From: Kiritimatiellia bacterium
Lineage (GTDB): Bacteria; Verrucomicrobiota; Kiritimatiellia; RFP12; DVOR01
NCBI GenBank assembly: GCA_031552845.1
Contig: JAVBMC010000028.1
Coordinates: 72,394 to 136,393 of the forward strand
Direction of reading: 5' to 3'
DNA length: 64,000 nucleotides
Below, in pieces: positions 7,129-55,266 of this stretch; positions within the stretch are counted from its first letter, which is position 1, and each line of letters opens with the position of its first letter. Made by a program: the position numbers and the translations under genes. The notes beneath the pieces are model-generated. The model saw nothing but the letters and a program-made list of their open reading frames with translations. It had not been told where the DNA came from and did no database searches.

Positions 7129-7619
7129 CGACTAGCGCGATGTCCATACGCCGTCCGCGGCTGGTATTTTCAATCGGTTCATTTTTCTCGCTCTTCTTCA
7201 GCGTCTCCGTATCTGCCGGGAGTTTCTTCGTTATTTTCAGGGGTCGTATATCAGGTGATATCGTGCTCATAAATCAGGTGATGTCGTACTCGTGTATCAA
7301 GTGATATGGTACCCCGAAAGAAGAGGAGTTTGCACACCTGGCAAATAACTGCTTCAGATACCTCTCCTATCCTCCGCGCCTCCGCGTGAGTTTTTTAGGT
7401 GTCGAGTAGTTTTAGGTATTGCTGCTGGCGTTCTTTGTTTTAATGCAGTATCGGAATGATATCAAACAAAAAAAGTCTTTTAATTCCGTATTGTTCCGAA
7501 TGGATTGCCGCACATATGTGTGTTTGAGCGAGTGTTTCTTGATGGTGGATGCGGGGCTGGTGGTGCGAGTTGCGTGTTTTGAGGTACATTTTGCGGGGGA
7601 GCGAATGGAGTATGTGGGA

Positions 7620-9039: not shown

Positions 9040-9420
9040 TAGCTCGGATATTTGTGTGAGCCGGGCGGGTATTTTGTCTGAGCCCAGTGTGAAAAATGTG
9101 TGAGCTGAGTCAATATTTTGTCTGAGCCGTATGGATAATTTGTGCGAGCCGGGCAAGAATTTTGTACCACGTGCCTCGCACAAATTCAACATGCGCGTTT
9201 TTCGAGCGTGTTATATCGTCCGTACTCGCGGAGCACGAATCATAATTTTGCGGGATACGTATCAGCGTACCACGCATCACGTATCATCCATTTGCGCATC
9301 ACGTGCTATCGTACTGCGGGATACGTGATATAAGTTTGTGTGTCACGTGACATCGTACCGGATGATGTGTGTCATCGTACTGCGGGACACGTGTCATCCG
9401 TTTGCAGTACACGTATCCTT
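9040..9420. repeat. AT-rich degenerate tandem repeats (TTTGTNNGAGCCGGGC units; cluster of CACGTG-centred palindromes)
   Basis: 9040-9170 holds 4-5 units ...tttgtgtgagccgggc / ttttgtctgagcc / tttgtgcgagccgggc. 9230-9420 holds repeated ...atcgtactgcgggaYacgtg..., cacgtgctat, gtcacgtgacat and gacacgtgtcat. GC content is far below the flanks. Confidence 0.6.
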
Positions 9421-10369
9421 GTGCTGAGAAGCGAAGTAATATGTAGTAGATTAGAGGCAATAAATTGAGCCGAAAATGTTATAATGCCCAATATATGTAG
9501 GTGTTTTGAAGGTAGGGAGGGGTTCACCGAAGGCAGGCGCAGAGGAGGATGGGTGTTACGCGGAGATGCTGAATAAGCGAGCTCCCAACCTGTCTCGACT
9601 TCTCCGAGTTCTTCGACTTCATCACCACTACGAATACGCAACACCGACACTGTCAACGAAAATGTAGGTGCTCCAAAAGAAGGCACAAGCCCGACTTCAC
9701 CGATTTTCGCCGACTTCATCGACATGCAAAGTAGCGCAACAGCGAACATCATAACAAGAGCAGATAATGTGAGTACAGTAAACATGATAAAAGAAAAGTT
9801 GAAAGGTGAAAGAAACGAGAGTCTCGTAGCAGGCTCGACCCAATAGCCTGTTTGTTGTTGATGGCTCCTTGGAGCTTAAGCTCTCGTATGTCGGGGGGCG
9901 GAGATTCGTATTGAACTCCGAGCCACAAGGTCCGAATCAGTGACGAGTCACTCAATGGGGTCAACAGGGATGCAGTTTAGCAGAATTAAGGAATAAGTCA
10001 AGAAGAGAAGCAATAGGTAATAAGTGATAGGTAATAAGTTGTTGAACAGGAGGGAATAGGATGAAGAAAATAAATGGAGAGGGGTAAGCAGGAAAGGCTC
10101 ACGCGGAGGTGCGGAGAGAGAGGGGAAGGGTATCCGCAGATTGCACAGATGCTCGCAGATGGGGGGTGAGAGGAAGGGAGAGAAGGGGCTAGGCGTGGTG
10201 TAGCGGTTTCGGCGAAACGCGCCCTACCTACTGACGCACGCCAAAGAATTCGCATAATGCCGGCGAGGACGTCGGGTGCTTTCAAGCGGCATAACCGGCA
10301 CGCGATTTCGTCGATTTCATAGGCTTCTGCAACAAGCCAACACACCCTGACTGATGGCGCGTCGAGGAG

Positions 10370-18656: not shown

Positions 18657-19539
18657 CCCTTTAAGCTACAAATATCTCGCATTGTCGCAAAAAAACGCTC
18701 CCAAAGCAAGCCCTAAATCTCAATGTGTAGCGGCAAGCTCACGCGGAGACGCAGAGGCGCGGAGAGAAAAGAGAAGAGGACACCAGCGATGAAGTCGACG
18801 AAAATCGGAGAAGTCGTGCTAAGAGAATATGGAGGGCGGCTTTGCCAAAACCGCCGACCTTTTTAATACGGCTAACGCAAACAAACTTGTGATGAACGCC
18901 TTAACCCTTCCAAAACGTTGTTTCGCCCGCTGTTCCCTGAAACGGATGGATTGGGTGCCACGTTCTTTCTTTTGCCACCATTTTTTATAGCCTCAATATG
19001 GCGTCAAAAACGAAGTGCTTTTGGGTTTGAAGGCACGTGCCTTCAACTTCAAAGGCACCTGTAATGTACTCTTACTTACACGTGTAACCAAACTTTACTT
19101 ACGCCTGTAAGTAGAACTCACTTGCACGTGCGAGTGAAGTTGAATACACCTCGATTTTGCATAGTGTAAAACAGAGAGTAAGGCTGGATCTTTAAATTAG
19201 GGAGTGTAGAGTTGCAAGGAGGCTTGTTTTGGCACGTTCGATTCCTTGATTGGTATCCTGTTACCTGTTTCTGCTGTTTGTTCGCTGAGCAATTGAAGTG
19301 AAAACTCAAAACCGGGCTGTTTGGGGGCATGTTGGAGAAGGTGATCGCGGTGCCCATGGAAGCAAGTTCGCAGGGTGTGCGATTTTGAATGTCTTGTCTT
19401 TTCTGCTTGCTATTGGCGGTTGGGTCTGTTACACTTGAGATTGTTGGAGGGATTATGCCGCGTGTCGGTAGGTGTGCATTGCGTGTCGGTTTTTGAGGCG
19501 GGGACGGTTAGAGAATTTTTCGATAAAGGATGGCACAGG

Positions 19540-29590: not shown

Positions 29591-29636
29591 CGGCGATATC
29601 AATTAGTGGCATTTGCGACGGGTGTTACCCATCCGC

Positions 29637-29738
29637 GGGCTTGTAAGCCCGCGAGTGTAGGCTTGTAAGCCCGTTGGAGCGGGCTTATAAGCCCCTGAGT
29701 GTGGGCTTGCAAGCCCGTGGATGCGGGGTTCGAAGCCC
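29637..29738. repeat. Tandem array of 5 x 22-bp units each containing the palindrome GGGCTT-NN-AAGCCC
   Basis: Palindrome centres at 29643/44, 29665/66, 29687/88, 29709/10 and 29731/32, exactly 22 bp apart: gggcttgtaagccc, aggcttgtaagccc, gggcttataagccc, gggcttgcaagccc, ggggttcgaagccc. Confidence 0.85.
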
Positions 29739-29920
29739 GTGAAATGCAAGCGTATGGATGGCGGAATGTTAGGAGCACATTTTCAGGCGGTTGTTGCCTG
29801 TATTTCGAATACGCCGACGTTATCTGCGCAAGCTGCTGAAGTTGACCCGAAATAGGGTTTCTCCTCTGTTGCAAGGATAATTCATGTTCCATTTTAGTAG
29901 GTGAAAGTCAGTTTTGTGGG

Positions 29921-33000: not shown

Positions 33001-33277
33001 GGATGTCGGTATATTCGGATTACCGCAAACTATTCATGTCACGTCGCCTGTTGGCTTGATCAGCATATCTGGTGCCGGAGATTTGAGTACTGTGACCGTT
33101 ACTGTTGATACGGACAGTCTCAAGATCGGCCAGCGCTACCCGATTCTCTTGTGTGATGGTGAGTTTACAGGACTGCCCGTTGTGTCGGGCGTGAATCCGG
33201 ATGTCTGGATGATTCGGCGTATAGGCGATGTGGTTGAGCTGTTCTCCAAAGGCGGCATGGTATTGCAGTTGTTTTAA
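30071..33277 (+). CDS. Giant secreted protein, paralog 1: N-terminal jelly-roll-like domain, autotransporter-associated beta-strand repeats, two LamG-like (concanavalin A-like) domains, conserved C-terminal module
   Basis: The start is set at the internal Met (30071) that precedes a signal peptide MKRNVLLVSALALVSMCHG. LamG signatures VAELIVYDRLLSSAERQVIEQYLIAKW and IGEVIVYDRDLTADEFAQVEGLLMLKW. Beta-strand repeat VRKQGTAALKLLGSSTHSGMLDIREGSV. C-terminus ...ELFSKGGMVLQLF. Confidence 0.8.
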   Translation: MKRNVLLVSALALVSMCHGFTMPVWEVGTITGDTDVISEGTTVTAYAVGGATEVNGVSFVKTPNNGNTSVQYWGTYLTVNIGIRGTRAYSATRGTPSGMSEAYVTMLRGELMAYTDANSTFEAEGVIQLQGLIPGAQYILQVWCNDSSGSSSASRQTMLIANIFDATVTVRQNMEAKAGGAGQYAVLRFTAPATALTIDLTAPHVIGATDAILISAIQLREVAATTPNAYAWSGGVNNVWAADDLNWGGDGAQAPWAVGSGTEAMALIYPPQPTTTTVLRVESTIEAGVVSSVGSTVLQGNGMLNTTAAVVDSDLLADVRVQTDVLQKHGGGVLSFVNPLGHAVGVLAVSNGAVRLSPLPIFGGLTTHLDASDITSMDVDANGGVVAWRSVNGAPARYTFPTADAATFVPPVYAADAFGGRGGVRFGSEGPSKLTSTVTTNARSVFLVMKLSVFKDYQEVWGINAQNSDTIRGIRLWGAGSPNNMKWFTDRGNTTGGNGVLNDEELFWVDGVWSENYPLASTTAAQVLSLQTSGGAVGKYFAMGSYFYASANRTGRYLQGDVAELIVYDRLLSSAERQVIEQYLIAKWAGAERQSLAANILSDSMKVIVEAQGTLSLDGVSQEVSGLSGDGTVAATAPAELVVNTTQDAVFNGAFKGALNVRKQGTAALKLLGSSTHSGMLDIREGSVIAGQEFPTEGLLYRLDAGRPETLTVNASGQVSAWADSQADSTVVFSQANAATQPDYVPSAFNGQGGVRFGAEGKVTSLEYDQSTVNKTVFLVVYTESTTVEFAGVWGSCASGQNVGFRSSGTATSGGYGASNQWGFAKGSSGDFVPDNNNGSFRTNGVAVGNVGPVIPEFEVQVIALNRKTASTFAQTAVGEYYWEGERPYMGIIGEVIVYDRDLTADEFAQVEGLLMLKWGARKETAASHLSSSSGLVMTKGTVLDLKGSDQAVRSYSGAGQVVNGRLIVSEQVTATGDVGIFGLPQTIHVTSPVGLISISGAGDLSTVTVTVDTDSLKIGQRYPILLCDGEFTGLPVVSGVNPDVWMIRRIGDVVELFSKGGMVLQLF

Positions 33278-33306
33278 ACATAGGTGAGAAATATAGGAAG
33301 CAGATT

Positions 33307-36300: not shown

Positions 36301-36552
36301 CTTGCGTTGCATATAGAATCGCCTGATGCAAAGGTGACGATTGCTGCCAACGGTGATTTGAGCACAATGACAATCACGATTGATAAAGACAAGCTAGAGC
36401 TGGGTACTCGTTATCCAATTATTATTTGCAATGGTGACCTCACCGGCTTGCCGGTGCTTGAAGGCGTCAACACGCTTGTGTGGAAAGTGCGCCGCGTGGG
36501 TGATGTGATTGAACTCTATTCGATTGCCCGTACTGTGCTGGAGCTATTCTAA
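33307..36552 (+). CDS. Giant secreted protein, paralog 2 (same architecture)
   Basis: 1081 aa. Signal peptide MNWKTIVGIVVLTAGAVFA. Same domain order as paralog 1. LamG motifs IAEVIGFDRDLSRAERAALQTYLTAKW and IGEILVYDRRLTEDEYLQLEQTLMKKW. C-terminus ...IELYSIARTVLELF. Confidence 0.8.
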   Translation: MNWKTIVGIVVLTAGAVFAWPQYSWQMGDVTADTDVVTEGELIAAYAIHAATEVNGVPFEKGSAPKSSINWGSAFTVNIGYVGTRAPDENRAKPEDILPAVAEISAGYRSLLSGVILANNQWADEFSPQGRITIRNLTLGSVYLLQVWCSDPSAYAAERRMILSTDVLPSSVEMRENVTGGNGGAGQWAILKFVALGPEQSVYLSAPVTTATDAIVLTALQLRKIADSAPGTGTFIWSGGYWGVWDKSDLNWGGDGEAMPWIVGSSSQGVSNTAVVMPSSADGYGIELNVLEDLEAAAFVASSGGPVTMIGEGSMSTPLIAAGTNLFVGTRLKAELLAKHDLGTLQLIAAPLAHEIGALDVNKGTVALVPYPNVTDGAMFHLDASARESIVMDANGRVSSWRSIGGVSNVSYDFPPDDPSEFVMPLYNASEFDGKGGIVFGTQGPSKLLASTRMRVKTVLMAVQIREFADFQEVWGVNGTENAFPPAVKLGGSGWGGRDKWFGDSSNPAIFCDETNFWVDASEKLPYPPALLTEPQVVTSLARARGEAVNNKIFALGSVDFRSTYRQSRYLRASIAEVIGFDRDLSRAERAALQTYLTAKWKQNAFSVVVTNLLPASIKVNLAEGASLRIDQAHQNVSTLTGSGKVTGQGRGATLVVDMLQDAKFDGTFEGGLSLYKQGSGVWTLADKVNTLSGPLSVQAGTLKLGTIPAVPTDGLVYCIDASKPSTLVVDADSKVSIWRDVRPSSTMAFRQSDPAAQPTYDPAAFYGLGAVRFGADGQVTSLLNERVTTNQTVVIVAWTENREIPYAGVWGLNNVNYGFRAAGSAYSSGSSRQWAYGAGNSGDFLTDSKGGIFRINGSTTGGLPSVAESIPQVILMNRVTPSNFTATAIGKYWDATPTRQYAGCIGEILVYDRRLTEDEYLQLEQTLMKKWSASSRSLIKVLPGAIDIEVAAGATLDLGDREQTVNSFSGGGAVVNGRLFVSGTITPTGAIEVVNIPLALHIESPDAKVTIAANGDLSTMTITIDKDKLELGTRYPIIICNGDLTGLPVLEGVNTLVWKVRRVGDVIELYSIARTVLELF

Positions 36553-36576
36553 TTGTAACTGAGAAGGACTAAAAAG

Positions 36577-39500
36577 ATGAACTGGAAAATGCTTGCGGGC
36601 GTAGCTTTGCTGAGTGCTGGTGTCGCTTGGGGACAGATTGGGTCTGTCTGGCAGTCTGGAGATATCACGGGTGATTCGGATGTGGTGACGGAGGGAGAAC
36701 TGCTCGCGGCGTATGCGGTGAGTGCCGCGACAGAGGTGAATGGTGTCGCATTTGCAAAACCGACTGCTTATAATACGAATGCATGTGCATGGGGTACTAT
36801 GTTCACAATGGACATGGGGTACTATGGAACTCGTAGTCTTAATACAGCTCGTGGAACGCCAACAAATCCGGAGTTGAGCAACGCGTACATTACTCTATTA
36901 AAAGGCATGACATATGCTAGTAATAGTCAAAGTGATTTGCTGTCGCCCTTGGGGCGCGTGACCATTCAAAACTTAAAACCGGGGGCTGTTTATTTGGTGC
37001 AGATTTGGAGCAGCGATTCTTCGGAGTGGTCCACGACCAATCGTCTGACAACTTTCACAGCGTCATCAACCATTTCACCCTCGGTTTCGGTTACGGTGCG
37101 GCATAATTTAACTGCAGCAAAGGGTGGCACGGGACAGTACGTTGTGCTACGGTTCACGGCGACAGCCGAACAGCATATGATTGAAATGTCAGCGCCGGAT
37201 TTTGCAAATTCGGTTGAGGCCATTGCGCTGAGTGCGATTCAGCTGCGGAAGTTGGCGGATTCGACAGAGGGGGTATCTGCTTGGCAGCAAGAATTGAATG
37301 AAGCTGAGTGGGATGTGACAGACCGCAACTGGGGTGGAGATGGCGAGACGGTGCTATGGTCGGCTGAGGCCGGAGCAGGCCGCGCAGGCGTTATGGCGGT
37401 GTCGGGAACAACGGATGGACTGATAACGGTCAACTCTGATGTGACAGCAGGTACGATTTATGCCTCAGGCGGATTCCAAACACTGCAGGGGACAGGCAGT
37501 TTGAAGGTGTCGCAGATTAATTCGGCAGGTGTGTTGTCGATTCAGGTGCCGTTGATGGGCGATTCGCTTTTGAAAGATGATGCGGGCTCATTGTTCTTCT
37601 TGAAGTCGGACGTTCCACACCAAACCAAGCGGATTACGGTGGATAATGGTTCTGTGATTTTAGGAGGCTTGCCGAGCTTCTGGGAGAATAGCGTTTTCCG
37701 TTTGGACGCTTCCATGCCGGATAGTATTGTACGAGATGCCAATGGCGCGATCAGCAGCTGGAAGTCAGTTGGAGACGTGACATTAAGTTATGATTTTACG
37801 GAGGCGATGGATGCGGACTTTGTCAAGCCGGTGTATGATGCCAATGCATTTGGCGGTAAGGGTGGTGTTGTATTCGGCGCTAACGGCCCCTCTAAATTAT
37901 TGTCGTCGCTGCCGGTGACGGTGCGGACTGTTTTTGCGGTGATGCACTTTGATACATTTGCCGATTACTCAGAAGTCTGGGGCATTAATGGTTTGGACAA
38001 CAATACAGTGCGCGGTATTCGTTTGGCAGGGAGCACTACCGCTACGAGCGCGAAGTGGTATCAAGATGCATCGAACACTGGCAACTTCAATGAGACTGAT
38101 TGCTTCTGGGTGGATGGGGTCGCCTCTACGACTTATCCGGAGGCATCCTTGACCGAGCTACAGGTGGTGACAGCGACGAGCCGGGTGAGAAATGATTCGG
38201 TAGATAAGCTTTTTGGGTTGGGGTCATACAGTTTTTTGCCGGCTAATCGTACAGGGCGCTATCTGCAGGGACGTATTGCTGAGGTTGTCGGATTCAGCCG
38301 TGACTTAACCCGCTCGGAGCGGATTGCTGTCGAAGAGTATTTGAGGACTAAGTGGCAGCAGCCGGTGACACGGCACAACCTGTTGCCCATTGACACAAAA
38401 ATCACGCTTGAGGAGAAAGGCGTGCTGCAGCTGAGTAACGTTCCGCAAGAGCTGGCTCAGCTCAGCGGTAACGGTTCGGTGGTTGCCTCGGAGCCGGTGA
38501 ATGCATTGATTGTCAATGCCGTTGAGGATCATGCGTATGCAGGCACAATTGCCGCCAATGTGCGTGTTGAGAAAAAAGGCCCCGCCTTGTGGCAACTGTC
38601 GGGCGATAAAACATTTCACGGCATACTTGCCATTCAAGAGGGAACGGTCATGGCGGGTATCGACTGTTCTTTGCCTGAGGATGGGTTAGCGTATCGAATT
38701 GATGCTTCGAGGAGTAGTACGTTGACGCATGATGAAGAAGGCAAAGTCTCTGCATGGCGGGATGCGCGTCCCGATAGTTCGGTGGTCTTTCGGCAAGAAA
38801 ATGCGGAAGCGCAACCCATTTATACTCCTACGGCATTTGGCGGTATTGGTGGAGTACGGTTTGGAACGGATGGGCGGGTCACTAGTTTGATCAACTCACA
38901 AAGTGCAAGTATCAAAACCGTCTTCATTGTTGCATGGACAGAGAAGGCCAATATTGAATTTGCGGGCATCTGGGGTTCTGCAGGGGCTAACTTGGGGCTG
39001 CGCGCTGCTGGTTTAGTGATCCACAACAGCAAATCAACCCAGTGGGCGTTTAACCTGTTTAACAGTGCTGACTTCATTGAAGGCCCAACGAAAGGATTAT
39101 TTCGTTCCAACGGAGTGACGCTGACAAGCACGCCCACAATTCCGCTCGGACAACCGCAGTTGATTATGCTGAAGCGTGATGCAACGGCAACGTTCCCCGG
39201 GACTGCTATCGGCAAATATTGGGATGCTACGCCAACGCGGCAATATACGGGCTATATTGGCGAGATACTCGCTTACGATAGAGACTTCACGGAGGAAGAG
39301 TACGAGGCTGTTGAACAGGCGCTCATGATGAAATGGGGTTTGGTTGAGCAAAAGCTGACGCAATGTTTTGCACCGGAGGCCAGTCTTGAGATCGCAACCG
39401 GTGGCACCTTGCATCTCGCCGGTACTGAACAAAAGGTGACTAACTATAAGGGTGCCGGAGCCATCATCAATGGTGAGTTAATTGTGACAGGAACAGTCAC

Positions 39501-39786
39501 GCCGACCGGTGCGGTGGAGATCTTTAACATTCCGGCTGAACTTGCCGTGATATCCCCGAATGGCAATCTAAAGATTTCTGCGGATGGCGATTTGAGCACG
39601 ATGATTATTACGATTGATAAAGATAAACTGGTGCTGGGCGCCCGCTATTCAATTATCACGTGTAATGGTGAGTTGACTGGCCTGCCCGTGGTGTTCGGTG
39701 TAAATCCTGAGGTTTGGATGGTCAGGCGTGTGGGTGATGCGATTGAATTATATTCGATCGCACCCACGGTGTTAGAGTTATTCTAA
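36577..39786 (+). CDS. Giant secreted protein, paralog 3 (same architecture)
   Basis: 1069 aa. Signal peptide MNWKMLAGVALLSAGVAWG. LamG motifs IAEVVGFSRDLTRSERIAVEEYLRTKW and IGEILAYDRDFTEEEYEAVEQALMMKW. C-terminus ...IELYSIAPTVLELF. Confidence 0.8.
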   Translation: MNWKMLAGVALLSAGVAWGQIGSVWQSGDITGDSDVVTEGELLAAYAVSAATEVNGVAFAKPTAYNTNACAWGTMFTMDMGYYGTRSLNTARGTPTNPELSNAYITLLKGMTYASNSQSDLLSPLGRVTIQNLKPGAVYLVQIWSSDSSEWSTTNRLTTFTASSTISPSVSVTVRHNLTAAKGGTGQYVVLRFTATAEQHMIEMSAPDFANSVEAIALSAIQLRKLADSTEGVSAWQQELNEAEWDVTDRNWGGDGETVLWSAEAGAGRAGVMAVSGTTDGLITVNSDVTAGTIYASGGFQTLQGTGSLKVSQINSAGVLSIQVPLMGDSLLKDDAGSLFFLKSDVPHQTKRITVDNGSVILGGLPSFWENSVFRLDASMPDSIVRDANGAISSWKSVGDVTLSYDFTEAMDADFVKPVYDANAFGGKGGVVFGANGPSKLLSSLPVTVRTVFAVMHFDTFADYSEVWGINGLDNNTVRGIRLAGSTTATSAKWYQDASNTGNFNETDCFWVDGVASTTYPEASLTELQVVTATSRVRNDSVDKLFGLGSYSFLPANRTGRYLQGRIAEVVGFSRDLTRSERIAVEEYLRTKWQQPVTRHNLLPIDTKITLEEKGVLQLSNVPQELAQLSGNGSVVASEPVNALIVNAVEDHAYAGTIAANVRVEKKGPALWQLSGDKTFHGILAIQEGTVMAGIDCSLPEDGLAYRIDASRSSTLTHDEEGKVSAWRDARPDSSVVFRQENAEAQPIYTPTAFGGIGGVRFGTDGRVTSLINSQSASIKTVFIVAWTEKANIEFAGIWGSAGANLGLRAAGLVIHNSKSTQWAFNLFNSADFIEGPTKGLFRSNGVTLTSTPTIPLGQPQLIMLKRDATATFPGTAIGKYWDATPTRQYTGYIGEILAYDRDFTEEEYEAVEQALMMKWGLVEQKLTQCFAPEASLEIATGGTLHLAGTEQKVTNYKGAGAIINGELIVTGTVTPTGAVEIFNIPAELAVISPNGNLKISADGDLSTMIITIDKDKLVLGARYSIITCNGELTGLPVVFGVNPEVWMVRRVGDAIELYSIAPTVLELF

Positions 39787-39804
39787 TGAATTGATGGTGG
39801 TTAA

Positions 39805-39840
39805 GCCCGCAGGTATTCGCAAAATACCTGCGGGCTCTTG
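39805..39840 (+). terminator. Rho-independent terminator after the paralog operon
   Basis: aagcccgcaggtattcgcaaaatacctgcgggctcttgtt: a 12-bp perfect stem gcccgcaggtat/atacctgcgggc plus a T-rich tail. Confidence 0.75.
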
Positions 39841-39855
39841 TTAGACGGGGATGGA

Positions 39856-42195
39856 ATGATGAGGTTTGCGTTGATGGCGGTGATATTGTGCGGGGGACTG
39901 CAATGTTCGGCGATGGAGAAGCTGCCGGAGATTGTGACGCCGTCATTGACTGTTCGTGCACTGACGCCGACGCAGATTCGCATTGAGACTGCCGATGGAA
40001 AGAAGATTGTAGACTACAACGGCATCCGCCTCAAAGGAACATTATCGGCAAAGACTGTTGATGGCGGGAGTGTCCGGCGTACGGTCAATGCTGATGGATT
40101 GCCGACGCTGGAAGTTCGTTATGCGGTCAGCGTTGATGGCGATGAGAAGACCAAGCCGGTTGTCGTTGGACGCTTTACGCCGAATAAAGATAGTGTCCGC
40201 GTAACGTATGATATTACCGGTGTTCCGACCGATAAGAAGTTTACGCTGGGCAACTCCATGCTGCAACGCAGTTATGTCTCCGGCACAGAGCTTCTCGTGG
40301 AACAGCGCAGTATGCTGACTCATTGGGAACGTCATGAGGCGGGCGGGATTCCTTATGAAGTCAACGATGGCACCGTGGTTCCTTACCGTTCACCTTCCGG
40401 GGCATTTGCTGTTGTCGTTGATGGGCACCCGAATCTCAAGTGGCGTGATGGACATCAAGAACATATCTCAATCAACCGTGTGGAGCCGGGACACTTTAAA
40501 TCAGAGTTCGCTGTGGTGCTTGCTGATATTGAAAAAGTGGGCGCGCCTGCAATCGGCGGCATCTGGCGGAACTGTCCCGTGGGATTAACGTTGCGGACGG
40601 ACCGCGCGTTTCATTGCTGGCAGTCGGCCAAAGAGCCTCTCTGCTTCACTGCCGACATCAACAGCTCACTTGCAGTTACACAGCGCGTAGAGCGTGCGTA
40701 TTGGGTGCGCGATTTTGCGGGCAGGGTGATTGCTCAAGACACGCGACAGATCAATCTTCCTCCATTGACTCTCTACTCGGAACCCTTGAAGGTGCAGACG
40801 AGCGATACGCGCGGCATTTACTTTGTGGAGGTTTCGTTGAAGGATCTGCGCGGGCACGAGCTTGCGTTTGCACGAATCAATCTGACCGTGCTGCCGCCGC
40901 ACACGTTTTCATCTACGCCTCAAGACAGTATCTTTGGCCTCGCCGCCTATTGGCCTTTGCCGTCGGAGGAAGTTGTGCAGGACTTGATGGATCGCATGGG
41001 CGTGCGTTGGTTGCGCGAAGGCGACACCCGCAAGCAGCACCCGCCGCGTATTGCCAACCATCACAGCAACACATCATTCGGTAAAGAGTGGAATCCGACT
41101 GAGCGCGATGCTTGGATCCGCAAACAGTTTGAGATCTGTGTTGAGAATAAAAACCCCTGCTGGGAGTTCGGCAACGAGATCAACATGTCCACTTTTGGCA
41201 TTGCGTTGGAAGGCGGCGGGATCGGCAAAGCGTTGCTCGCACCACAATATATCGATTGGATTAATGCTGTGCGCCGCGTACAAAAAGAGAAGCCGGAGTG
41301 GCAGCAGATTCAGCTACTGAGTTTCGGTGTGGCGGGAATGGATACAGTGTTCGTGCGCAAGCTGATTGATGCCGGAACTTTCGCGCAGCTTGACGGACTC
41401 TGCCTGCATCCGGGGCGCGGTAACTTCGCGCCTGATTATCCGCTGGCACAGCCGTGGCTGCCGCATGATCTCAAGCGTGATAAGGGGAGCTTTTGGAACT
41501 ATTACGGCGCCGTGCGGACAGCGCATGACATCTGCAGCAGTAACGGTAGCAAGCCCTTATGGCTCACAGAGGTTTATGCGCCGACTAACCCCAACAGCCA
41601 TTGGGAAGACACGCCCCGCCATGCGGCGGAGAATGTGTTGTTGAGCTTTATCTTGGCAAAGGTTGAGAGTGTTAAGGCCGTGATGTACTATCAACTCTTT
41701 GACTCCGTTTGGTATGACCGCCTCGGCGTCAATCACAAAGAGCGCGAGTATTTCTTTGGGCTGATCCACCGCGACTATAGTCTCAAGCCCGCACTGCTCG
41801 CCTACTGCGCGGCGGCAGAACATTTGGAGAGTGCAGTGTTTAAAGGCTGGGTGAAGTTTGATGGCACGGAAGTCCGTGGTGTAGTCTTTGATACGCCGCG
41901 TGGCGCATTGACGATTTTGTGGAACCGTGCCGATGGCTATATCCTCACAGAGAAAGTTAAACCCTTCGCAACACCGGAACCTTGGGTAGACTTGTGGAAA
42001 ACTAAAACAGCCGTTACACTGCCGACATCTGCCTCATCCGTACGCATTATCAATGCCATCGGTCAACACTCCACTGTCGCATCCAACAATAAGACTGTCA
42101 CGCTCAAAATAGATGGCGCACCGACGATGATCTACGGACTCGACATCGCGCAGTTCAAACTATTGCCAAACGGTGCAGTTGCGGTGAAACATTAA
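39856..42195 (+). CDS. Secreted glycoside hydrolase, clan GH-A-like (TIM barrel) with an N-terminal beta-sandwich region
   Basis: Signal peptide MMRFALMAVILCGGLQCSA. Candidate catalytic acid/base in ...CWEFGNEINMSTFG and nucleophile in ...KPLWLTEVYAPTNP (the NE(P)...TE pattern of GH-A). Family not assignable by eye. Confidence 0.55.
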   Translation: MMRFALMAVILCGGLQCSAMEKLPEIVTPSLTVRALTPTQIRIETADGKKIVDYNGIRLKGTLSAKTVDGGSVRRTVNADGLPTLEVRYAVSVDGDEKTKPVVVGRFTPNKDSVRVTYDITGVPTDKKFTLGNSMLQRSYVSGTELLVEQRSMLTHWERHEAGGIPYEVNDGTVVPYRSPSGAFAVVVDGHPNLKWRDGHQEHISINRVEPGHFKSEFAVVLADIEKVGAPAIGGIWRNCPVGLTLRTDRAFHCWQSAKEPLCFTADINSSLAVTQRVERAYWVRDFAGRVIAQDTRQINLPPLTLYSEPLKVQTSDTRGIYFVEVSLKDLRGHELAFARINLTVLPPHTFSSTPQDSIFGLAAYWPLPSEEVVQDLMDRMGVRWLREGDTRKQHPPRIANHHSNTSFGKEWNPTERDAWIRKQFEICVENKNPCWEFGNEINMSTFGIALEGGGIGKALLAPQYIDWINAVRRVQKEKPEWQQIQLLSFGVAGMDTVFVRKLIDAGTFAQLDGLCLHPGRGNFAPDYPLAQPWLPHDLKRDKGSFWNYYGAVRTAHDICSSNGSKPLWLTEVYAPTNPNSHWEDTPRHAAENVLLSFILAKVESVKAVMYYQLFDSVWYDRLGVNHKEREYFFGLIHRDYSLKPALLAYCAAAEHLESAVFKGWVKFDGTEVRGVVFDTPRGALTILWNRADGYILTEKVKPFATPEPWVDLWKTKTAVTLPTSASSVRIINAIGQHSTVASNNKTVTLKIDGAPTMIYGLDIAQFKLLPNGAVAVKH

Positions 42196-42788
42196 CGTGC
42201 CGGAGGAGTACGGAATATATTTTTACGCCAAAGAGGCGGTGGTTTGCCAATCTGCTGTTGGATTTCGGCTTCCATCGTTTGTAAGTCAGTGCCCGAGAGC
42301 TGGGGAATCAGCGTGGTGCGTAGTTCCCAGGGGATAGATGAGGAGGCTGTTCGTTTGATAGTTTCGTGAACGACGCCAGAATCGGCAGCGGGGCCACAGA
42401 TTTCTAGGTAGCGTGACGCAGGGCACTTGTAATCAATGGCAATGTAGTCTAGTAGATTCTTTGCAAGAAGCTCAGACACGACGTCGGGGTGACAGCCGTT
42501 TGTGTCGAGTTTGACTTGGTAGTTGAGGGTTTTGAGGTAGCGGCAGAATGTGATCAAGTCAGCTTGGATTGTAGGTTCGCCACCGCTGATGACTACGCCT
42601 GCCAACAGGCCGGCACGTTTTTCAAGGAACAAGCGGACTTCTTCCTCAGGCACCAAGTCCGCGCCATCGCGCGTTTGCGGATTATGGCAGAAACAGCAGT
42701 CATAGGGACACCCGGAGGTGAAGGCAACGCAGGCCGGCACCCCCGGGTAATCTATTAACGAAGTCTTGATTAGCCCGGCAAAGATCAC
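42192..42788 (-). CDS. nrdG: Anaerobic ribonucleoside-triphosphate reductase activating protein (radical SAM)
   Basis: 198 aa. CxxxCxxC cluster in GCPYDCCFCHN. Glycine-rich SAM motif VVISGGEPT. Immediately downstream of nrdD. Confidence 0.85.
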   Translation of the reverse strand: MIFAGLIKTSLIDYPGVPACVAFTSGCPYDCCFCHNPQTRDGADLVPEEEVRLFLEKRAGLLAGVVISGGEPTIQADLITFCRYLKTLNYQVKLDTNGCHPDVVSELLAKNLLDYIAIDYKCPASRYLEICGPAADSGVVHETIKRTASSSIPWELRTTLIPQLSGTDLQTMEAEIQQQIGKPPPLWRKNIFRTPPAR

Positions 42789-44878
42789 GCGGTGGCTTTC
42801 TTCATGACATAAGGTTTGCGCTCGTTGTATTCGGCCTTCTTGCCTTTGTTGAAGTTTTTAACCGGTCGCAGGTAGCCGACCACACGCGTCCAAACCTCGG
42901 TCTCTGCGCCGCACTTCGGGCAGGCCGTATGTTCGCCATCGAGATAGCCATGCGCATCGCACGTGCTAAAGGTCGGCGTCAGTGAGACGTAGGGGAGTTT
43001 GTAGCGTGTGAAGATGGTTCGGATGAGTTCCCGCGCCGCTTGGGTATCGGTGATACGCTCGCCGAGATAGAGGTGCAGAACCGTGCCGCCGGTGTAGGCC
43101 GATTGCAAGTCGTCTTGCAGGTCGAGCGTTTCAAAGATATCATCGGTGAAGGCAACGGGCAGTTGGGATGAGTTCGTATAGTACGGTTCGTTTTCGCCGG
43201 CTGCAAGAATTGCCGGATGGCGCGCCTTGTCGATCCGTGCCAAGCGGTAGCTGGTGCCCTCGGCGGGTGTTGCTTCCAAGTTGAAGAAGTGTCCCGTCTC
43301 TTCTTGGAATCCCGTCATCAGGTTTCGCAGCGCCTCAAGTACGTCGTTAGCGAACTTCTGCCCCTTCTCGCTTGTCAGGTCAACATCGGAATCGAAGAGG
43401 TTGCGGATAGCTTCGTTCATGCCGACGATGCCGATGGTGCTGAAGTGATTCGCCCAGTAAGAGCCTTCGCGTTTGCGGATGTCTTCAAGGTAGCGGGCGG
43501 AGAAAGGATACATGCCGCGGGCGGTCTCCTTCTCGATAATGCCGCGCTTCATCTCAAGGCTGTCTTTCGCCAACACGGCGTAGCTGCGCAGGATTTCGTA
43601 GAAGCGTTTCTCGTCGCCCTGTGCTTCGTAAGCAAGGCGCGGCAGGTTGAGCGTGACGACGCCGATGCTGCCGGTGAGCGGATTGGAACCGAAAAGGCCG
43701 CCGCCGCGTTTGCGCAGCTCGGAGGTGTCGAGCCGCAGACGGCAGCACATGGAGAGCGCGTCTTCCGGCGAGAGGTCGCTGTTGATGTAATTGGAGAAGT
43801 AGGGAATGCCATATTTACACGTCATCTCGAATATGGCATCGCTCACAGGGTTATCCCACTGGAAGTCACGCGTGATGTTGATGGTGGGGATCGGGAAGGT
43901 GAACACACGTCCCGACGCATCGCCCTCCATCATAACTTCGCAGAAGGCGCGGTTGAAAATATCCATCTCTGCCTGATACTCGCCGTAGCAGGTGTCCTGT
44001 GGTTTGCCGCCGATGATGATGGGACGGTCCTTTAACGTGGAGGGAACACGTAAATCAAAGGTGAGGTTGGAGAATGGGCATTGGAATCCGACACGCGTGG
44101 GAACGTTGAGGTTGAAGATGAATTCTTGAAGTGCTTGCTTCACGGATTTGAAGTCGAGCTTGTCCAGGCGGATGAACGGCGCGCAGTAGGTGTCGATGGA
44201 TGACCATGCTTGCGCACCCGCAGTTTCGCCTTGCGTTGAGAAGGTCGAGTTGACAATCTGCCCCAGGAACGAGCGCAGGTGTTTGGCCGGATTGGATGAC
44301 ACTTTGCCGGGAATGCCGCCGAAGCCGATACACAGCAATTGATACAGATCCCAGCCCGCGCAGTAGGGGCCGAAGAAGCCCAGGTCGTGCAGGTGAAAAT
44401 AACCATCTGCATGCGCGGCGCGGATTTCGGCCGGATAGACTTCGTTCAGCCAATACTGCCGCGTGAATGCTTCACGGATGTAGTTGTTCATGCCGTTGAC
44501 GCTGCGGGAGGTGTTGGCGTTTTCGCGCACCTTCCAATCGCGGTCGTCGAGGTAATCATGGAACAAACGGATCGTCGCATCGACCACAGCTTGGCCATCG
44601 CGGATTTTCCGCCGCTGTTCACGGTAAAGGATGTAAGCCTTTGCGGTGGCCGTCAGGCCGTTGCGCATGAGCACCTGTTCGACAGTGTCTTGGATTTGTT
44701 CGACTTGGATATTGTCAGCCGCGGTACTCCAGCACAGTTCGAGGACTTCTTCCGCGAGGCGCCGCGGATTACCCGACGTCTCACCCGATACCTTGAGGGC
44801 CTTTTCGATTGCATTCTGGATTTTCTGTCCGTCGCAGAAAACCACGGTGCCATCCCGTTTCACAACATGTTTGAGCAT
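42785..44878 (-). CDS. nrdD: Anaerobic ribonucleoside-triphosphate reductase (class III)
   Basis: The start is set at MLKHVVKRDGTVVFCDGQKIQNAIEKA (ATP-cone) with RBS aaggagag. C-terminal glycyl-radical and Zn region ...CPKCGAETEVWTRVVGYLRPVKNFNKGK. Confidence 0.9.
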   Translation of the reverse strand: MLKHVVKRDGTVVFCDGQKIQNAIEKALKVSGETSGNPRRLAEEVLELCWSTAADNIQVEQIQDTVEQVLMRNGLTATAKAYILYREQRRKIRDGQAVVDATIRLFHDYLDDRDWKVRENANTSRSVNGMNNYIREAFTRQYWLNEVYPAEIRAAHADGYFHLHDLGFFGPYCAGWDLYQLLCIGFGGIPGKVSSNPAKHLRSFLGQIVNSTFSTQGETAGAQAWSSIDTYCAPFIRLDKLDFKSVKQALQEFIFNLNVPTRVGFQCPFSNLTFDLRVPSTLKDRPIIIGGKPQDTCYGEYQAEMDIFNRAFCEVMMEGDASGRVFTFPIPTINITRDFQWDNPVSDAIFEMTCKYGIPYFSNYINSDLSPEDALSMCCRLRLDTSELRKRGGGLFGSNPLTGSIGVVTLNLPRLAYEAQGDEKRFYEILRSYAVLAKDSLEMKRGIIEKETARGMYPFSARYLEDIRKREGSYWANHFSTIGIVGMNEAIRNLFDSDVDLTSEKGQKFANDVLEALRNLMTGFQEETGHFFNLEATPAEGTSYRLARIDKARHPAILAAGENEPYYTNSSQLPVAFTDDIFETLDLQDDLQSAYTGGTVLHLYLGERITDTQAARELIRTIFTRYKLPYVSLTPTFSTCDAHGYLDGEHTACPKCGAETEVWTRVVGYLRPVKNFNKGKKAEYNERKPYVMKKATA

Positions 44879-44989
44879 ATTCTCTCCTTGCGTTTTGGAA
44901 AAAGAAGAGAAGGGGAAGACACCAGCGTTCATCGCGGGGTTTTCCACACGCTCTCCATTCTCCGTGGGTGTGTGTTCGGGCGGGGCAGG

Positions 44990-45155
44990 TCTTCTGGCTC
45001 GGGCTTATCCACGGCGCCTTCCCGGGATGACTCCCAGTGGCTTGATGCCGTAGCTATATTGCCCTCACAGCGGCGGGACCGCGAAGGTTTTGCACCTTCT
45101 TCCCTTTTCACCGGCGTTTCCGCCGGACCTCGTCCGATACGCCATTTGGCGTATG
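44990..45155 (-). promoter_or_regulatory. Cobalamin (B12) riboswitch in the nrdDG leader
   Basis: The minus strand reads ...ggtgaaaagggaagaaggtgcaaaaccttcgcggtcccgccgctgtgagggc...ggcatcaagccactgggagtcatcccgggaaggcgcc. Core GGTGaAAAGGGAA...GGTGCAAAACC...CCCGCCgCTGT and B12 box AAGCCACTGGGA...CCGGGAAGGC are both present. Confidence 0.75.
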
Positions 45156-45161: not shown

Positions 45162-45190
45162 AGTATATCCTGTTTTGGTGAGCAAGGCAA
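45162..45190 (-). promoter_or_regulatory. Sigma70-like promoter for nrdDG (-35 TTGCCT, 17 bp, -10 TATACT)
   Basis: The minus strand reads cttgccttgctcaccaaaacaggatatactcc. The hexamers and 17-bp spacing are identical to the 29921-29949 promoter. Confidence 0.5.
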
Positions 45191-45302
45191 GGAAAACTTC
45201 CTCGTCTGGCTATGCCACCGTCGGCAAACGCCTCGACTACGTGCGTCACTGCCTCTATCCACGTCCGTGAGACAACGGAAAGCAACATGTCGTCCCCCTG
45301 TC

Positions 45303-45424
45303 TGTAACGTTGCTTTCTGCGGGCAGTAACATTACTTAGCGTTGTCAGCAACGTTACTTCCTGTGCTGAGTAACATTACTGCCAGTCATAAGTAACATTG
45401 CTCATGGTTGTGAGTAACGTTACT
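45303..45424. repeat. Tandem array of 6 x 22-bp units each containing the 12-bp palindrome AGTAAC|RTTRCT
   Basis: Palindromes at 45303-45314, 45325-45336, 45347-45358, 45369-45380, 45391-45402 and 45413-45424. Centres are exactly 22 bp apart. Located between the aroKB stop and the nrdD promoter. Confidence 0.85.
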
Positions 45425-45472: not shown

Positions 45473-47056
45473 TTATTCCGCGATGCAGAGAGCGCCGTCG
45501 CGAAGTTCGAGAGTCAGCGGAATACCGACTTTCACTTCGCCGGGGGCGACGGGTAACGCAAAGCGGACAGCACCATCGGCTTTCTTTTTATCGTGCCGGA
45601 CGGCTTCGAGGATTGCCGCTTTGTCGAGCTGTTCAGGGATTCCCGTCGGCAGGTTGTGCAGATGGAGGCAAGCCGTAAGCGCATCAACAAATTCCTGCTT
45701 GGCTAAGCCTTTTTGCACTGCATACCGCACCGCCGCGACCAGTCCAATCGCAACAGCTTCACCATGTGGAATGGAAAAGTTGGCCGCTTGTTCCACACCA
45801 TGTCCAATCGTGTGTCCAAGGTTCAGCGCCGCGCGGATGCCCTGCTCATAGGGGTCTTCACAAATGACGCGCACCTTGACCGCCAGCGAACGGGCGATGA
45901 GTGTTTGCAGTTCTGCCGGGGTGAAAGTATTTTTGCGGCACAGCAATTCAAACAGCTCTGCATCGTCAATCACGGCATGCTTGATTGTTTCGGCCATGCC
46001 GCAAGCAAACTCCTGTGGCGGTAATGTTGCCAGCACTTCCGGATCGGTTACAACCAACACCGGCGCATGGAATGCGCCAATCAGATTTTTTGCCTGTGGC
46101 AAGTCGGCGCCGGTTTTACCGCCGAGCGATGAATCGACCATCGCCAACATCGTGGTCGGGATGTTGACCCAGTCCACGCCGCGCAGCCAAGTCGCCGCCG
46201 CAAATCCGGTGAGGTCGCCGACCACACCGCCGCCTAAGGCGAACACGGTGTCGCCGCGTTCAATGCCGCCCGCAAGGAATCCGTTCCAAATCTGCTGGAC
46301 GGTATCAATGGTCTTGGTGGCTTCACCGGCGGGGATCGCAATTGTTTTCACCGTCAAACCAGCGGCGGCGAGCTGTTCTTCGACTTGCGCGGCGTAGAGC
46401 CGGTGAGTATTGGTGTCGCACACCAGCGCGGCGCGGCGGCCAAGCTTCAAGGGACGGAGCAGGGCGGAGAGGTTTTTCAATATGCCGTTACGGACGTAAA
46501 CTTCGTAATCGTTGTCCATGCCATAGATACGGTAAACGCCGAAGGCCGCCTGCACTGCCGCCGCGTTGGTCTTCTTGCTGTGATGTTCGACATTCACCTG
46601 CCGCTCGAACGTAGCATAATGCGGCGCTCGCTCAGCCATCAAATCATGAATGCTGCGTGTCGTGAGCAGCGGGCGGTATCCGGGTCTGCCGGAGGCACGT
46701 ACTTCCAAATACTCCGCTCCGGCCATCAAGCATACTACGTGTCCCATCGCTTCTACTTCACGCCGCAGCTCGGAATCAAGCAATGCCCCGCCGCCCAGTG
46801 AAACGACGCATCGAGGCTTGTCGAAGAGCGCACGGATCATCCGCGCTTCACGTGCCCGAAATGCCGCTTCACCCTCTGCCGCAAAAATCTCCGGGATGGT
46901 ACGTCCGGCCTCGGCTTCAATCTCCGCATCCACCTCGACCAGCGGCAGCCCCAGCTGTTCGGCGATCCGTTTGGCGTGTGTTGTCTTACCGCTCGCGGGT
47001 GGCCCGTATAAAAAAAGATGCTGCTGCTCAACTCGCATAATTATGCACTCCGACAA
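45473..47056 (-). CDS. aroKB: Bifunctional shikimate kinase / 3-dehydroquinate synthase (AroK-AroB fusion)
   Basis: N-terminal P-loop LFLYGPPASGKTT (shikimate kinase). C-terminal DHQ synthase core (...ALGGGVVGDLTGFAAATWLRGVDWVNIPTTMLAMVDSSLGGKTG...). The true start is likely the Met at 47038. Confidence 0.9.
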   Translation of the reverse strand: MSECIIMRVEQQHLFLYGPPASGKTTHAKRIAEQLGLPLVEVDAEIEAEAGRTIPEIFAAEGEAAFRAREARMIRALFDKPRCVVSLGGGALLDSELRREVEAMGHVVCLMAGAEYLEVRASGRPGYRPLLTTRSIHDLMAERAPHYATFERQVNVEHHSKKTNAAAVQAAFGVYRIYGMDNDYEVYVRNGILKNLSALLRPLKLGRRAALVCDTNTHRLYAAQVEEQLAAAGLTVKTIAIPAGEATKTIDTVQQIWNGFLAGGIERGDTVFALGGGVVGDLTGFAAATWLRGVDWVNIPTTMLAMVDSSLGGKTGADLPQAKNLIGAFHAPVLVVTDPEVLATLPPQEFACGMAETIKHAVIDDAELFELLCRKNTFTPAELQTLIARSLAVKVRVICEDPYEQGIRAALNLGHTIGHGVEQAANFSIPHGEAVAIGLVAAVRYAVQKGLAKQEFVDALTACLHLHNLPTGIPEQLDKAAILEAVRHDKKKADGAVRFALPVAPGEVKVGIPLTLELRDGALCIAE

Positions 47057-54888: not shown

Positions 54889-55146
54889 ACCTGCTCCTAC
54901 AACACAAAAGGCAACAAGTATAACAAAACTCCCCCCACAAAGCCACCAAAACACCACCCCCGTGCCAAAAAACAAGCCCACTTTACCGATGGTACGCCAG
55001 ACCACCTGATTTCCCCCTGTCACCGCCTGCTTCCTGAAACAGATTGCGGCTTCTGTTTCGCCGCCTTATACGCCGTTTATTGTCTGCAAGACCTTCCCTT
55101 TTCGCTGCCTTCTCGACTCCTTTTCGCATCACACCTACGATCGGAG

Positions 55147-55215
55147 TCTCATTCCCTCTAGGATGCGAGTCCCATCCTCTCTACAATGCGGGTCCCATCG
55201 TCTCTACAATGCGAC
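55147..55215. repeat. Three tandem 23-bp repeats (CTCTAcaATGCGrgTCCCATCsT) flanked by an inverted repeat
   Basis: Units ctctaggatgcgagtcccatcct, ctctacaatgcgggtcccatcgt and ctctacaatgcgactctcatcct. cctctaggatgcgagtc (55146) pairs with gactctcatcctagagg (55210) as an inverted repeat. Confidence 0.7.
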
Positions 55216-55266
55216 TCTCATCCTAGAGGCACTCCAGTCACACTGCAAAAACACCTCAGCCGACAG

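Follow-up and report, generated by a model that had tools for sequence, protein, structure and literature searches.

Within a 64,000-nucleotide stretch of genomic DNA from a Kiritimatiellia bacterium (the whole of which is called the window below) the intergenic region between aroKB and the anaerobic ribonucleotide reductase operon nrdDG carries six 12-bp palindromes repeated at a step of exactly 22 bp, which we refer to as array F. The palindromic cores have been kept while the DNA between them has drifted, and array F is one of several arrays in the intergenic DNA of the window that repeat every 22 or 23 bp. Our preferred reading, which we put forward tentatively and at somewhat less than an even chance on the pattern of the sequence, is that array F is a helically phased row of sites for a putative oligomerising sequence-specific DNA-binding protein.

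Organization of array F

The six palindromes of array F proper conform to AGYAAC-RTTRCT and, as read from the sequence, start at 45303 + 22n with zero indels. A first-pass annotation of this DNA had described six 12-bp palindromes at exact 22-bp spacing and this holds, with the correction that copy 1 starts with T rather than A and that copy 3 carries C at position 3. The 22-bp register continues toward nrdD through a degenerate seventh unit and three further units with another core.

45303..45424, array F proper, six palindromic 12-mers
45303, copy 1, TGTAACGTTGCT
45325, copy 2, AGTAACATTACT
45347, copy 3, AGCAACGTTACT
45369, copy 4, AGTAACATTACT
45391, copy 5, AGTAACATTGCT
45413, copy 6, AGTAACGTTACT
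45281..45424, whole span of the array, 6-7 units of 22 bp, core consensus AGYAACRTTRCT
45281..45302, degenerate seventh unit AGCAACATGTCG with its spacer, one step toward nrdD
45215..45280, three more units with another core, CCACCGTCGGCA (at 45215), CTACGTGCGTCA and CCACGTCCGTGA

The degenerate unit is identical to the unit at 45325 at 14/22 positions with its left half-site intact, and together with the flank of copy 1 it gives an inverted repeat, GAAAGCAAC...GTTGCTTTC. Among the units at 45215-45280, CTACGTGCGTCA and CCACGTCCGTGA match at 9/12 positions and the three units bridge array F to the promoter, a post hoc and weak observation to which we attach little weight.

A search of the window for AGTAACRTTACT allowing up to two mismatches returned 23 strand-matches compared with 3.2 +/- 2.5 in shuffled sequence, none of 100 shuffles reaching 23, and every copy with zero or one mismatch falls inside array F. 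Tandem Repeats Finder and a repeat finder gave the same 22-bp period. We also used a strict detector that requires a 10-mer to recur at least four times at one constant period of between 14 and 34 bp, up to two mismatches being allowed, and this recovered array F and made zero detections in 10 shuffled windows, bearing out the earlier view of the array as non-random.

The cores have a mean pairwise identity of 0.85 over 12 bp compared with 0.38 over the 10 bp of the spacers, a contrast that is significant by column permutation (P = 0.014). The spacers nevertheless exceed the identity of random 10-mers from the window (0.25 +/- 0.04; P = 0.003), and because spacer identity is 38% against 25% at random the units share a duplication ancestry: they are duplicates of a common ancestor whose spacers have become nearly random in sequence, the cores and the 22-bp step having been kept. 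There is no indel across about 60 bp of near-saturated spacer, and the difference between core and spacer together with the exact step points to constraint both on sequence and on phasing.

The core copies are self-complementary at 8-12 of their 12 positions and vary only at positions 1, 3, 7 and 10. Seven of the eight changes are transitions, which fall at the mirror-related positions 3 and 10 and at the central position 7. The central dinucleotide is CG in copies 1, 3 and 6 but CA in copies 2, 4 and 5, giving a partial 44-bp alternation. The 22-bp step is about two helical turns, and the combination of a dyad core, conservation of the core against drift of the spacer, two-turn phasing and restriction to intergenic DNA upstream of promoters is the signature of a cooperative protein-DNA array.

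Array F belongs to a set of 22- and 23-bp arrays

The window contains at least seven arrays that repeat every 22 or 23 bp, and as arrays A and C share a core there are six distinct cores between them. The arrays at 29.6 kb (22 bp) and 55.1 kb (23 bp) that had been pointed out in the first-pass annotation both exist (arrays E and G below) and four more were found. Besides array F these are as follows, none being assigned to a strand.

7251..7319, array A, 3 x 23 bp, core GTGATATCGTRCT, belonging to the array C core family
9050..9167, array B, direct repeats (about 6 x 22 bp) with core ATTTTGTSTGAGCC, 44-bp super-period
9257..9432, array C, about 8 x 22 bp, core the palindrome GAYACGTRTC, every other unit carrying ATCGTACTGCGGGA (the array A core), 44-bp super-period
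19031..19145, array D, 5 x 23 bp, cores centred on CACGTG, located between divergent genes
29634..29743, array E, 5 x 22 bp, palindrome GGGCTTGTAAGCCC, 44-bp super-period
55144..55235, array G, 4 x 23 bp, GAGTCCCATCCTCTCTACAATGC as a direct repeat, flanked by the divergent hom and a 391-amino acid open reading frame (ORF)

All of the arrays (7/7) are intergenic although intergenic DNA makes up only 9.5% of the window in an ORF-based map, a distribution with a probability of about 1e-6 or less by chance, so that the condition named in the first-pass annotation as refuting its view, arrays equally frequent in coding sequence, does not hold in the window, where none was found in coding DNA. Each of the six true intergenic regions longer than 300 bp carries an array. 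An apparent 762-bp gap (60630-61391) is really coding and was removed from the intergenic set; by eye, 60630-61235 on the minus strand looks like protein-coding sequence, with an ATG start at 61235 and an N-terminus resembling a signal peptide, and it may be continuous with the ORF at 59880-60629, implying a frameshift or sequencing error.

Although the strict detector permits periods of 14-34 bp all strong arrays that it returned were of 22 or 23 bp. The self-identity of intergenic DNA at lag 22 was 0.302 compared with about 0.26, and since this excess was gone once the arrays were masked the signal reflects discrete arrays and not a diffuse periodicity. The 44-bp super-period is full in arrays B, C and E and partial in array F, as expected for paired dimers. 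A contrast between core and spacer was also detected in array B (P = 0.02) and array C (P = 0.04) and was marginal in array G (P = 0.06), while the short arrays A, D and E gave no significant difference.

The first-pass annotation had also claimed that the arrays share a position relative to promoters, which is not what we observed, the distance from array to -35 varying between about 50 and about 180 bp and showing no phase in common. Array E lies 44 bp past the stop of its upstream gene and about 180 bp before a TTGCCT-17-TATACT site. It stands between the first two of five consecutive large ORFs (785-1280 amino acids, window 25748-42195) whose only Pfam matches are FlgD_ig, NHL repeat and PATR repeat and which probably encode secreted or cell-surface proteins.

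Arrays A and C have the common core GTGAYATCGTRCT in the same orientation and bracket a rhuM-family gene (7620-8618) and array B, in the setting of a type I restriction-modification locus (hsdM 3232-5748, hsdS 2066-3241). This pair may serve a single protein as looping sites, or may mark the two ends of a module that was inserted here. DnaA-box-like 9-mers are scattered in the window without forming a DnaA-box cluster, and for want of such a cluster we rejected the reading of the gyrB-proximal array as oriC.

The aroKB-nrdDG locus

Array F is flanked by genes and regulatory elements that all lie on the minus strand.

45473..47038, minus strand, aroKB fusion of shikimate kinase and 3-dehydroquinate synthase, SKI and DHQ synthase domains, stop at 45473-45475
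45162..45190, minus strand, sigma-70-like promoter TTGCCT-17-TATACT, -35 at 45190-45185 and -10 at 45167-45162, serving the riboswitch and nrdDG
44967..45147, minus strand, cobalamin riboswitch aptamer in the nrdD leader, Rfam RF00174, 123.1 bits against a gathering score of 31.5, E = 2e-30
42785..44878, minus strand, nrdD, anaerobic ribonucleoside-triphosphate reductase with N-terminal ATP-cone (Pfam NRDD 2.4e-187; 697 amino acids, P0121)
42192..42788, minus strand, nrdG, radical-SAM activase, downstream of nrdD

The last palindrome of array F is 48 bp from the aroKB stop and 113 bp separate the -35 from the closest full palindrome upstream of it, with the riboswitch and nrdDG downstream, in agreement with the position reported earlier. 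If the start site is assumed to be near 45155 the palindrome centres fall at about -131 (the degenerate unit) and from -153 to -263. The centres also lie at odd multiples of 11 bp from the centre of the -35; this is not so for array E (192 bp) and the relation is probably a coincidence.

A scan for sigma-70-like sites found one here, the TTGCCT-17-TATACT, compared with 0.1 expected. An extended form of the promoter, TTGCCTT-N16-TATACTCC, occurs at 45162-45190 on the minus strand and again at 29921-29949 on the plus strand downstream of array E, and may represent the consensus of housekeeping promoters in this organism. In contig L141, which carries a relative of nrdD, the riboswitch is preceded by an orthologous promoter, TTGCAC-17-TATAAT, and the nrdDG promoter call is credible because of this ortholog and the recurrence of the extended form past array E. 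The riboswitch matches the full-length model (1-189) within about 15 nt of the promoter and is kept in L141 and in two further contigs with nrdD relatives (L142 and L143).

No DNA-binding gene was found beside array F when all neighbouring and small ORFs were compared with Pfam and NCBIfam, the small neighbours having no family match, and the sole DNA-binding signal in the search for a binder was a set of weak helix-turn-helix matches in RhuM. At a permissive threshold Rfam returned the riboswitch and chance matches only, so that array F corresponds to no known RNA family, and no tRNAs are present in the window. Array F as coding sequence is ruled out, as a 22-bp unit does not preserve the reading frame and the ORFs that overlap the array run on through the riboswitch. 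A sigma-54 promoter with enhancer was also rejected, there being by eye no GG-N10-GC between array F and the riboswitch, and the sigma-70-like site being conserved in L141.

A putative row of protein-binding sites

In the mechanism that we propose each 12-bp palindrome would be bound by a symmetric dimer of one protein, and since the step is close to two turns the 6-7 dimers would be aligned along approximately the same face of the helix. Neighbouring dimers could touch and polymerise along, or wrap, about 150 bp of DNA that begins 48 bp past aroKB and stops about 110 bp short of the nrdDG -35. Such a complex would then work at a distance on the nrdDG promoter, either as a platform for upstream activation or anti-silencing or by insulating it from aroKB read-through, adding an input at transcription initiation to that of the B12 riboswitch. 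Array F would be one member of a lineage-specific class of 22/23-bp arrays in long intergenic regions. The anatomy, phasing, core-versus-spacer constraint, intergenic restriction and genomic context on which this builds are direct observations, from which we infer protein binding, its cooperativity and any effect on nrdDG.

Precedents for phased arrays with cooperative binding are the plasmid iterons (PMC4980987) and the parC iteron sets bound by ParR (PMC2241845), both described further below, and the operators of oligomeric regulators. DeoR/GlpR-type tandem operators are regularly spaced sites of such regulators. Like them and the Lrp/AsnC operators array F has several dyad sites separated by integral helical turns in a promoter region, and regulators of the Lrp and GlpR types wrap or coat DNA as oligomers and activate or repress from upstream. 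Octamers of the Lrp type (BarR) wrap 4-5 regularly spaced semi-palindromic 15-bp sites (PMC10201364). The sites of these systems are 15-20 bp at a period of about 20-32 bp whereas the array F core is 12 bp, and their regulator is usually encoded nearby with its motif found regulon-wide, whereas array F has no adjacent regulator and its motif is confined to the array within the window.

The first-pass annotation had proposed a shared organising principle for the arrays, with family-specific dimeric regulators oligomerising along the DNA as an example. The conserved cores, diverged spacers and indel-free phasing fit the cooperative binding in that proposal; the regulators themselves find no counterpart, none having been found, and seven arrays have six cores. 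The core-plus-spacer structure that is significant in arrays B and C as well favours a row of protein sites at array F, and we count in its favour that array F is not a known RNA family and has no plasmid or phage similarity.

Several observations weigh against a row of protein sites at array F. There is no candidate binder among the scanned neighbouring and small ORFs, and as the palindrome occurs nowhere else in the 64 kb no regulon is visible. At about 130-265 bp upstream of the likely start the array is far for a classical repressor, and its abutting 6-bp half-sites (centres 6 bp apart) are closer than those of typical helix-turn-helix dimer operators. Six cores on seven arrays in 64 kb would amount to hundreds per genome, too many for each to have one dedicated regulator. 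L141, whose NrdD is 88% identical, has a near-identical riboswitch and a similarly placed promoter and no array, so that in its lineage array F is dispensable for nrdDG expression. At a second locus the metagenome-assembled genome (MAG) contig L003 (Kiritimatiellaeota) carries a 23-bp array of GGACCACTATAGGGGTCC-type palindromes (4011-4140), and at the same place its sister L004 (3891-4201) has unalignable intergenic DNA without an array between flanks that are 90-92% identical.

The number of cores suggests a broader version of the same idea, which we regard as doubtful though worth serious consideration. Here arrays strictly phased at 22/23 bp, with 44-bp super-units, private 12-14-bp cores (palindromic or direct) and fast turnover between close relatives, would form an undescribed genome-wide class in genomes of the Kiritimatiellia type, present in nearly every long promoter-upstream intergenic region, with array F as the nrdDG case. 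As so many cores cannot each have a dedicated regulator, the reader would be a large expanded family of oligomerising proteins or else a single reader of repeat geometry or structure.

Conservation and distribution of the arrays

Array F is absent from every AroKB or NrdD relative that was fetched and synteny is broken on both sides. Upstream of the -35, L141 has an AT-rich stretch of about 70 bp, followed by an intrinsic terminator and then by another gene in place of aroKB. A lone AGTAAC-N6-TTACT about 80 bp upstream of its -35 (L141 ~250-268) may be a relic or variant of the array F palindrome, or chance. AroKB relatives that keep the upstream SpoU-CcsA-AroKB synteny have other genes downstream (L019, L020) and no arrays. 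In about 278 kb of DNA from relatives L003 alone passes the strict detector in intergenic DNA; a further match in L008 was rejected as a 21-bp codon-periodicity artefact in a 73% GC gene. In addition L149, a contig with an 82% identical Hom, begins in a 22-bp array of GTTTCAAAGGTTCGTRCCTTTT (1-94).

Whole intergenic regions seem to have been replaced at the L003/L004 locus. As array F is missing in L141 and the L003 array is missing in L004 the arrays are evolutionarily labile features rather than conserved regulatory sites, typical of the lineage and individually short-lived. The short-read (Logan) unitigs L017, which ends in array F copy 6 (window ~45410), and L149 both stop inside arrays, and arrays are for that reason probably under-sampled in short-read data and MAGs.

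Hom relatives at 66-76% identity are labelled Kiritimatiellia or Kiritimatiellae and AroKB relatives lie at 50-59% identity. NrdD has three lineage relatives at 88, 79 and 78% identity (L141, L142 and L143 respectively) and then Sphaerochaetaceae (Spirochaetota) at 74%. With its nearest sequences outside the lineage in Sphaerochaetaceae, while Hom and AroKB point to Kiritimatiellia, there is a hint of NrdD transfer, and the riboswitch-nrdDG module, at whose upstream junction array F lies, may have been acquired horizontally.

A metagenome scan for two GYAACRTTRC cores 22 bp apart gave at least 120 loci, and no homologue of array F was found among the matches listed. These matches comprised perfect 22-bp minisatellites of many kinds, Bacteroidales chromosomal contigs with several 22-bp arrays of other palindromic cores, and a sizeable family of gut-phage loci in which 2-3 GCAACGTTGC or GTAACGTTAC palindromes lie 22 bp apart in the 5' part of terS. 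As the search pattern itself set the motif and the spacing, the phage and metagenome matches are not independent evidence on the window. A three-core scan of viral contigs yielded terS-type sites or simple repeats only, and BLAST of the array F region against 72,556 plasmids and 50,697 phages found no similarity.

L133 3399-3430, L092 9081-9112, L027 10790-10821 and L153 1303-1358, terS sites, perfect GCAACGTTGC or GTAACGTTAC
L047 1652-1740 and 3040-3127, L118 1552-1640 and 8314-8401, Bacteroidales 22-bp arrays with palindromic cores

The T/C and A/G variation of the terS palindromes is mirrored between both arms, and they are probably a pac-type packaging signal. The Bacteroidales cores are GTGCATCGTTCGA; GGCATATGCC together with AGCAATGTTGCT, both upstream of a susC-like gene; and CATCSGATG between LysR and ThrE genes. 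Phased 22-bp arrays may thus be more widespread than the lineage of the window.

Alternative explanations

An unlikely alternative that nonetheless fits the turnover is that the arrays are functionless minisatellites, arising by lineage-specific tandem duplication of 22/23-bp (or 44-bp) units, surviving in intergenic DNA since they would cause frameshifts elsewhere, and then decaying. The rapid loss or gain of array F relative to L141 and of the L003 array relative to L004, the private core of most arrays, the lack of a significant core/spacer contrast in arrays A, D and E and the abundance of perfect 22-bp minisatellites in metagenomes would all follow, and the 44-bp super-periods and the residual spacer similarity (38% vs 25%, P = 0.003) do show growth by unit duplication. 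Neutral decay however predicts neither cores that are far better kept than spacers in F, B and C nor the absence of indels. Selection against frameshifts would permit any period that is not a multiple of three and yet only 22 and 23 were found, and the dyad-symmetric cores of C, D, E and F are not produced by duplication alone.

Rather unlikely in our estimation is a DNA-structural element, in which two-turn repeats sum small bends into a curve or superhelix, or negative supercoiling drives the palindromes to extrude small hairpins. On this view the arrays would have an architectural role or buffer supercoiling, independently of their sequence, and one shape-reading nucleoid protein might recognise all of them. 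This accounts for many cores with one period and for the position upstream of promoters, including the divergent regions of D and G, and it needs no dedicated regulator for each array; 22-23 bp is moreover two turns at 11-11.5 bp per turn, in the range of periodicities reported for bacterial genomes. A planar bend on the other hand favours 21 bp (10.5 bp per turn) and no 21-bp array was seen, curvature does not need an 85%-conserved 12-bp core beside free spacers, and 12-bp palindromes are too short for stable cruciforms.

We consider it quite unlikely that array F acts as RNA, either in the 3' end of the aroKB mRNA or in an aroKB-nrdDG read-through transcript, where the palindromes would pair into 12-13-bp hairpins that stabilise the mRNA, provide processing sites or block read-through in the manner of repetitive extragenic palindromes (REPs). 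The location 48 bp past aroKB would suit this, as would that of array E 44 bp past its own upstream gene. A scan found no intrinsic terminator of aroKB on its own strand, terminator-like sites being on the plus strand only. The sense (minus) strand of array F folds into three strong hairpins at -61.4 kcal/mol with z = -5.2, none of 200 shuffles (0/200) doing as well. A low folding energy is however automatic for repeated palindromes, the opposite strand reaching z = -3.9, and none of the minus-strand hairpins is followed by a U-tract. On inspection the variation between copies is neither strand-specific nor G-U-biased. The direct-repeat arrays B and G cannot form such hairpins, D and G are flanked by divergently oriented genes and so do not follow the 3' end of any gene, and there is no Rfam match. 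Known REPs are 20-40 bp, occur in many copies per genome and carry a GTAG or CGTC tag (PMC3733652). Array F resembles REPs and bacterial interspersed mosaic elements in being composed of intergenic palindromes just past a gene 3' end with the potential for RNA hairpins, and it was rejected as one since its palindromes are 12 bp, confined to the array in the window, untagged by GTAG or CGTC and strictly phased.

An origin in a mobile or replicative element appears very unlikely; array F would in this case be the remnant or site of an iteron-like origin, a partition centromere, transposase ends or a phage pac-like signal at a rearrangement junction. Plasmid iterons are 17-22 bp in 3-7 copies and their cooperative binding is lost on a half-turn shift (PMC4980987), and a core of about 12 bp with a spacer of about 10 bp in a 22-bp phase is classic iteron geometry. 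The Rep-bound iterons of R6K and pPS10 (22-bp), RK2 (17-bp) and P1 and F (19-bp) are like array F in copy number and two-turn step, and like it they have a conserved core and looser spacers, each replicon having a sequence private to it. Array F is also exactly at a synteny break (after aroKB in L019 and L020, before nrdD in L141-L143), the closest nrdD homologues outside the lineage, in Sphaerochaetaceae, suggest transfer, the island gene rhuM has arrays with a common core (A and C) on its two sides, and the same palindrome is found at the same 22-bp spacing in phage terS genes.

Iterons are however direct repeats bound by monomers whereas array F consists of palindromes, and iteron origins have a rep gene, an AT-rich unwinding element and DnaA boxes, whereas array F has aroKB and nrdDG as its neighbours, with neither a rep gene nor an unwinding element nor a DnaA-box cluster nearby. 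Array F is unlike iterons too in its chromosomal housekeeping setting, where 64 kb hold seven arrays. Genes of the par, transposase, integrase or terminase kinds are likewise absent from its surroundings, there is no BLAST match among the plasmids and phages searched, most arrays are beside housekeeping genes (the gyrB region, hom, aroKB), and the terS matches are tied to the search pattern as stated above. At the R1 centromere parC, ParR binds sets of iterons and its dimers polymerise into a higher-order nucleoprotein complex around the promoter (PMC2241845). This site consists of two sets of five 11-bp iterons, and there are related ribbon-helix-helix or helix-turn-helix centromere arrays; array F, likewise a row of short repeats, differs in having a period of 22 and not 11 and in lying upstream of a metabolic operon. 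Partition centromeres moreover stand beside parA or parM with an adaptor gene, and there are no parA/parM/parR-like genes among the window ORFs scanned.

In CRISPR loci (clustered regularly interspaced short palindromic repeats) the repeats measure about 23 bp or more and the spacers about 26 bp or more, and cas genes are present. Array F shares with them conserved repeats alternating with spacers at a fixed period, and was rejected as a CRISPR as its repeats are 12 bp and its spacers 10 bp with traces of common ancestry, and no cas domains were found in the window.

There is only a slim likelihood that array F is a contingency locus, in which gain and loss of 22-bp units by slippage would alter the geometry upstream of the promoter and tune or switch nrdDG within populations. 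A tandem array upstream of a promoter, with a two-turn unit such that changes in copy number keep the phase, is what would be expected of such a locus, and short-read unitigs do break at arrays (L017, L149). The spacers are however too diverged (38%) for efficient slipped-strand mispairing, no copy-number variant was seen with one assembly covering the locus, and low coverage explains the unitig breaks equally well.

The first-pass annotation had held that array F is not the box of NrdR, the ATP-cone repressor of ribonucleotide reductase genes, and our analysis supports this. The NrdR consensus is reportedly the 16-bp palindrome acaCwAtATaTwGtgt. NrdR boxes form a pair 15-16 bp (sometimes 25-26 bp) apart, which is 3 or 4 turns centre to centre, and overlap or abut the -35/-10 region (PMC12051234). 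A divergent NrdR operator on an unusual box can be dismissed as scarcely credible, for while both are cis-elements at nrd operons and NrdR binding likewise depends on integer helical turns between boxes (PMC12051234), the window has no match to the NrdR box ACACWATATATWGTGT within 3 mismatches and no NrdR-type protein match among the ORFs scanned in these 64 kb, and array F differs in consensus, in length (12 vs 16 bp), in spacer (10 vs 15-16 or 25-26 bp), in copy number (at least 6 vs a pair) and in position (113 bp from the -35 vs overlapping the promoter). NrdR-like box pairs 31 bp apart that look quite different from array F (for example ACCACAATATTTTGT and ACCACAATAGGTTGT) are found in L142 (~790-860) and L143 (~4415-4465) between the promoter and the cobalamin riboswitch. 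These pairs are missing in the window and in L141, and NrdR control appears to have been lost or replaced in the sub-lineage that contains the two.

Implications

Phased homotypic site arrays are of a known kind, and we found nothing relevant in the literature on the array F motif or on phased intergenic arrays in this phylum. The chromosomal ubiquity, private cores, fixed 22/23-bp step and rapid turnover of these arrays appear to be undescribed in the literature that we searched, and the wider set of arrays is more interesting than array F alone. The two-turn phasing, private cores and fast turnover make the arrays a tractable system for the birth and loss of cis-regulatory architecture, and since arrays break short-read assemblies (L017, L149) they would be under-represented in MAGs.

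If the arrays are protein-docking rows then a principle familiar chiefly from plasmid origins and centromeres would be applied here to ordinary chromosomal promoter-upstream regions, including that of an essential deoxynucleotide-supply operon which is already riboswitch-controlled. This would add a second layer, at the level of initiation, to the B12-dependent switching between ribonucleotide reductases, and would point to new regulators in the poorly studied Kiritimatiellota.

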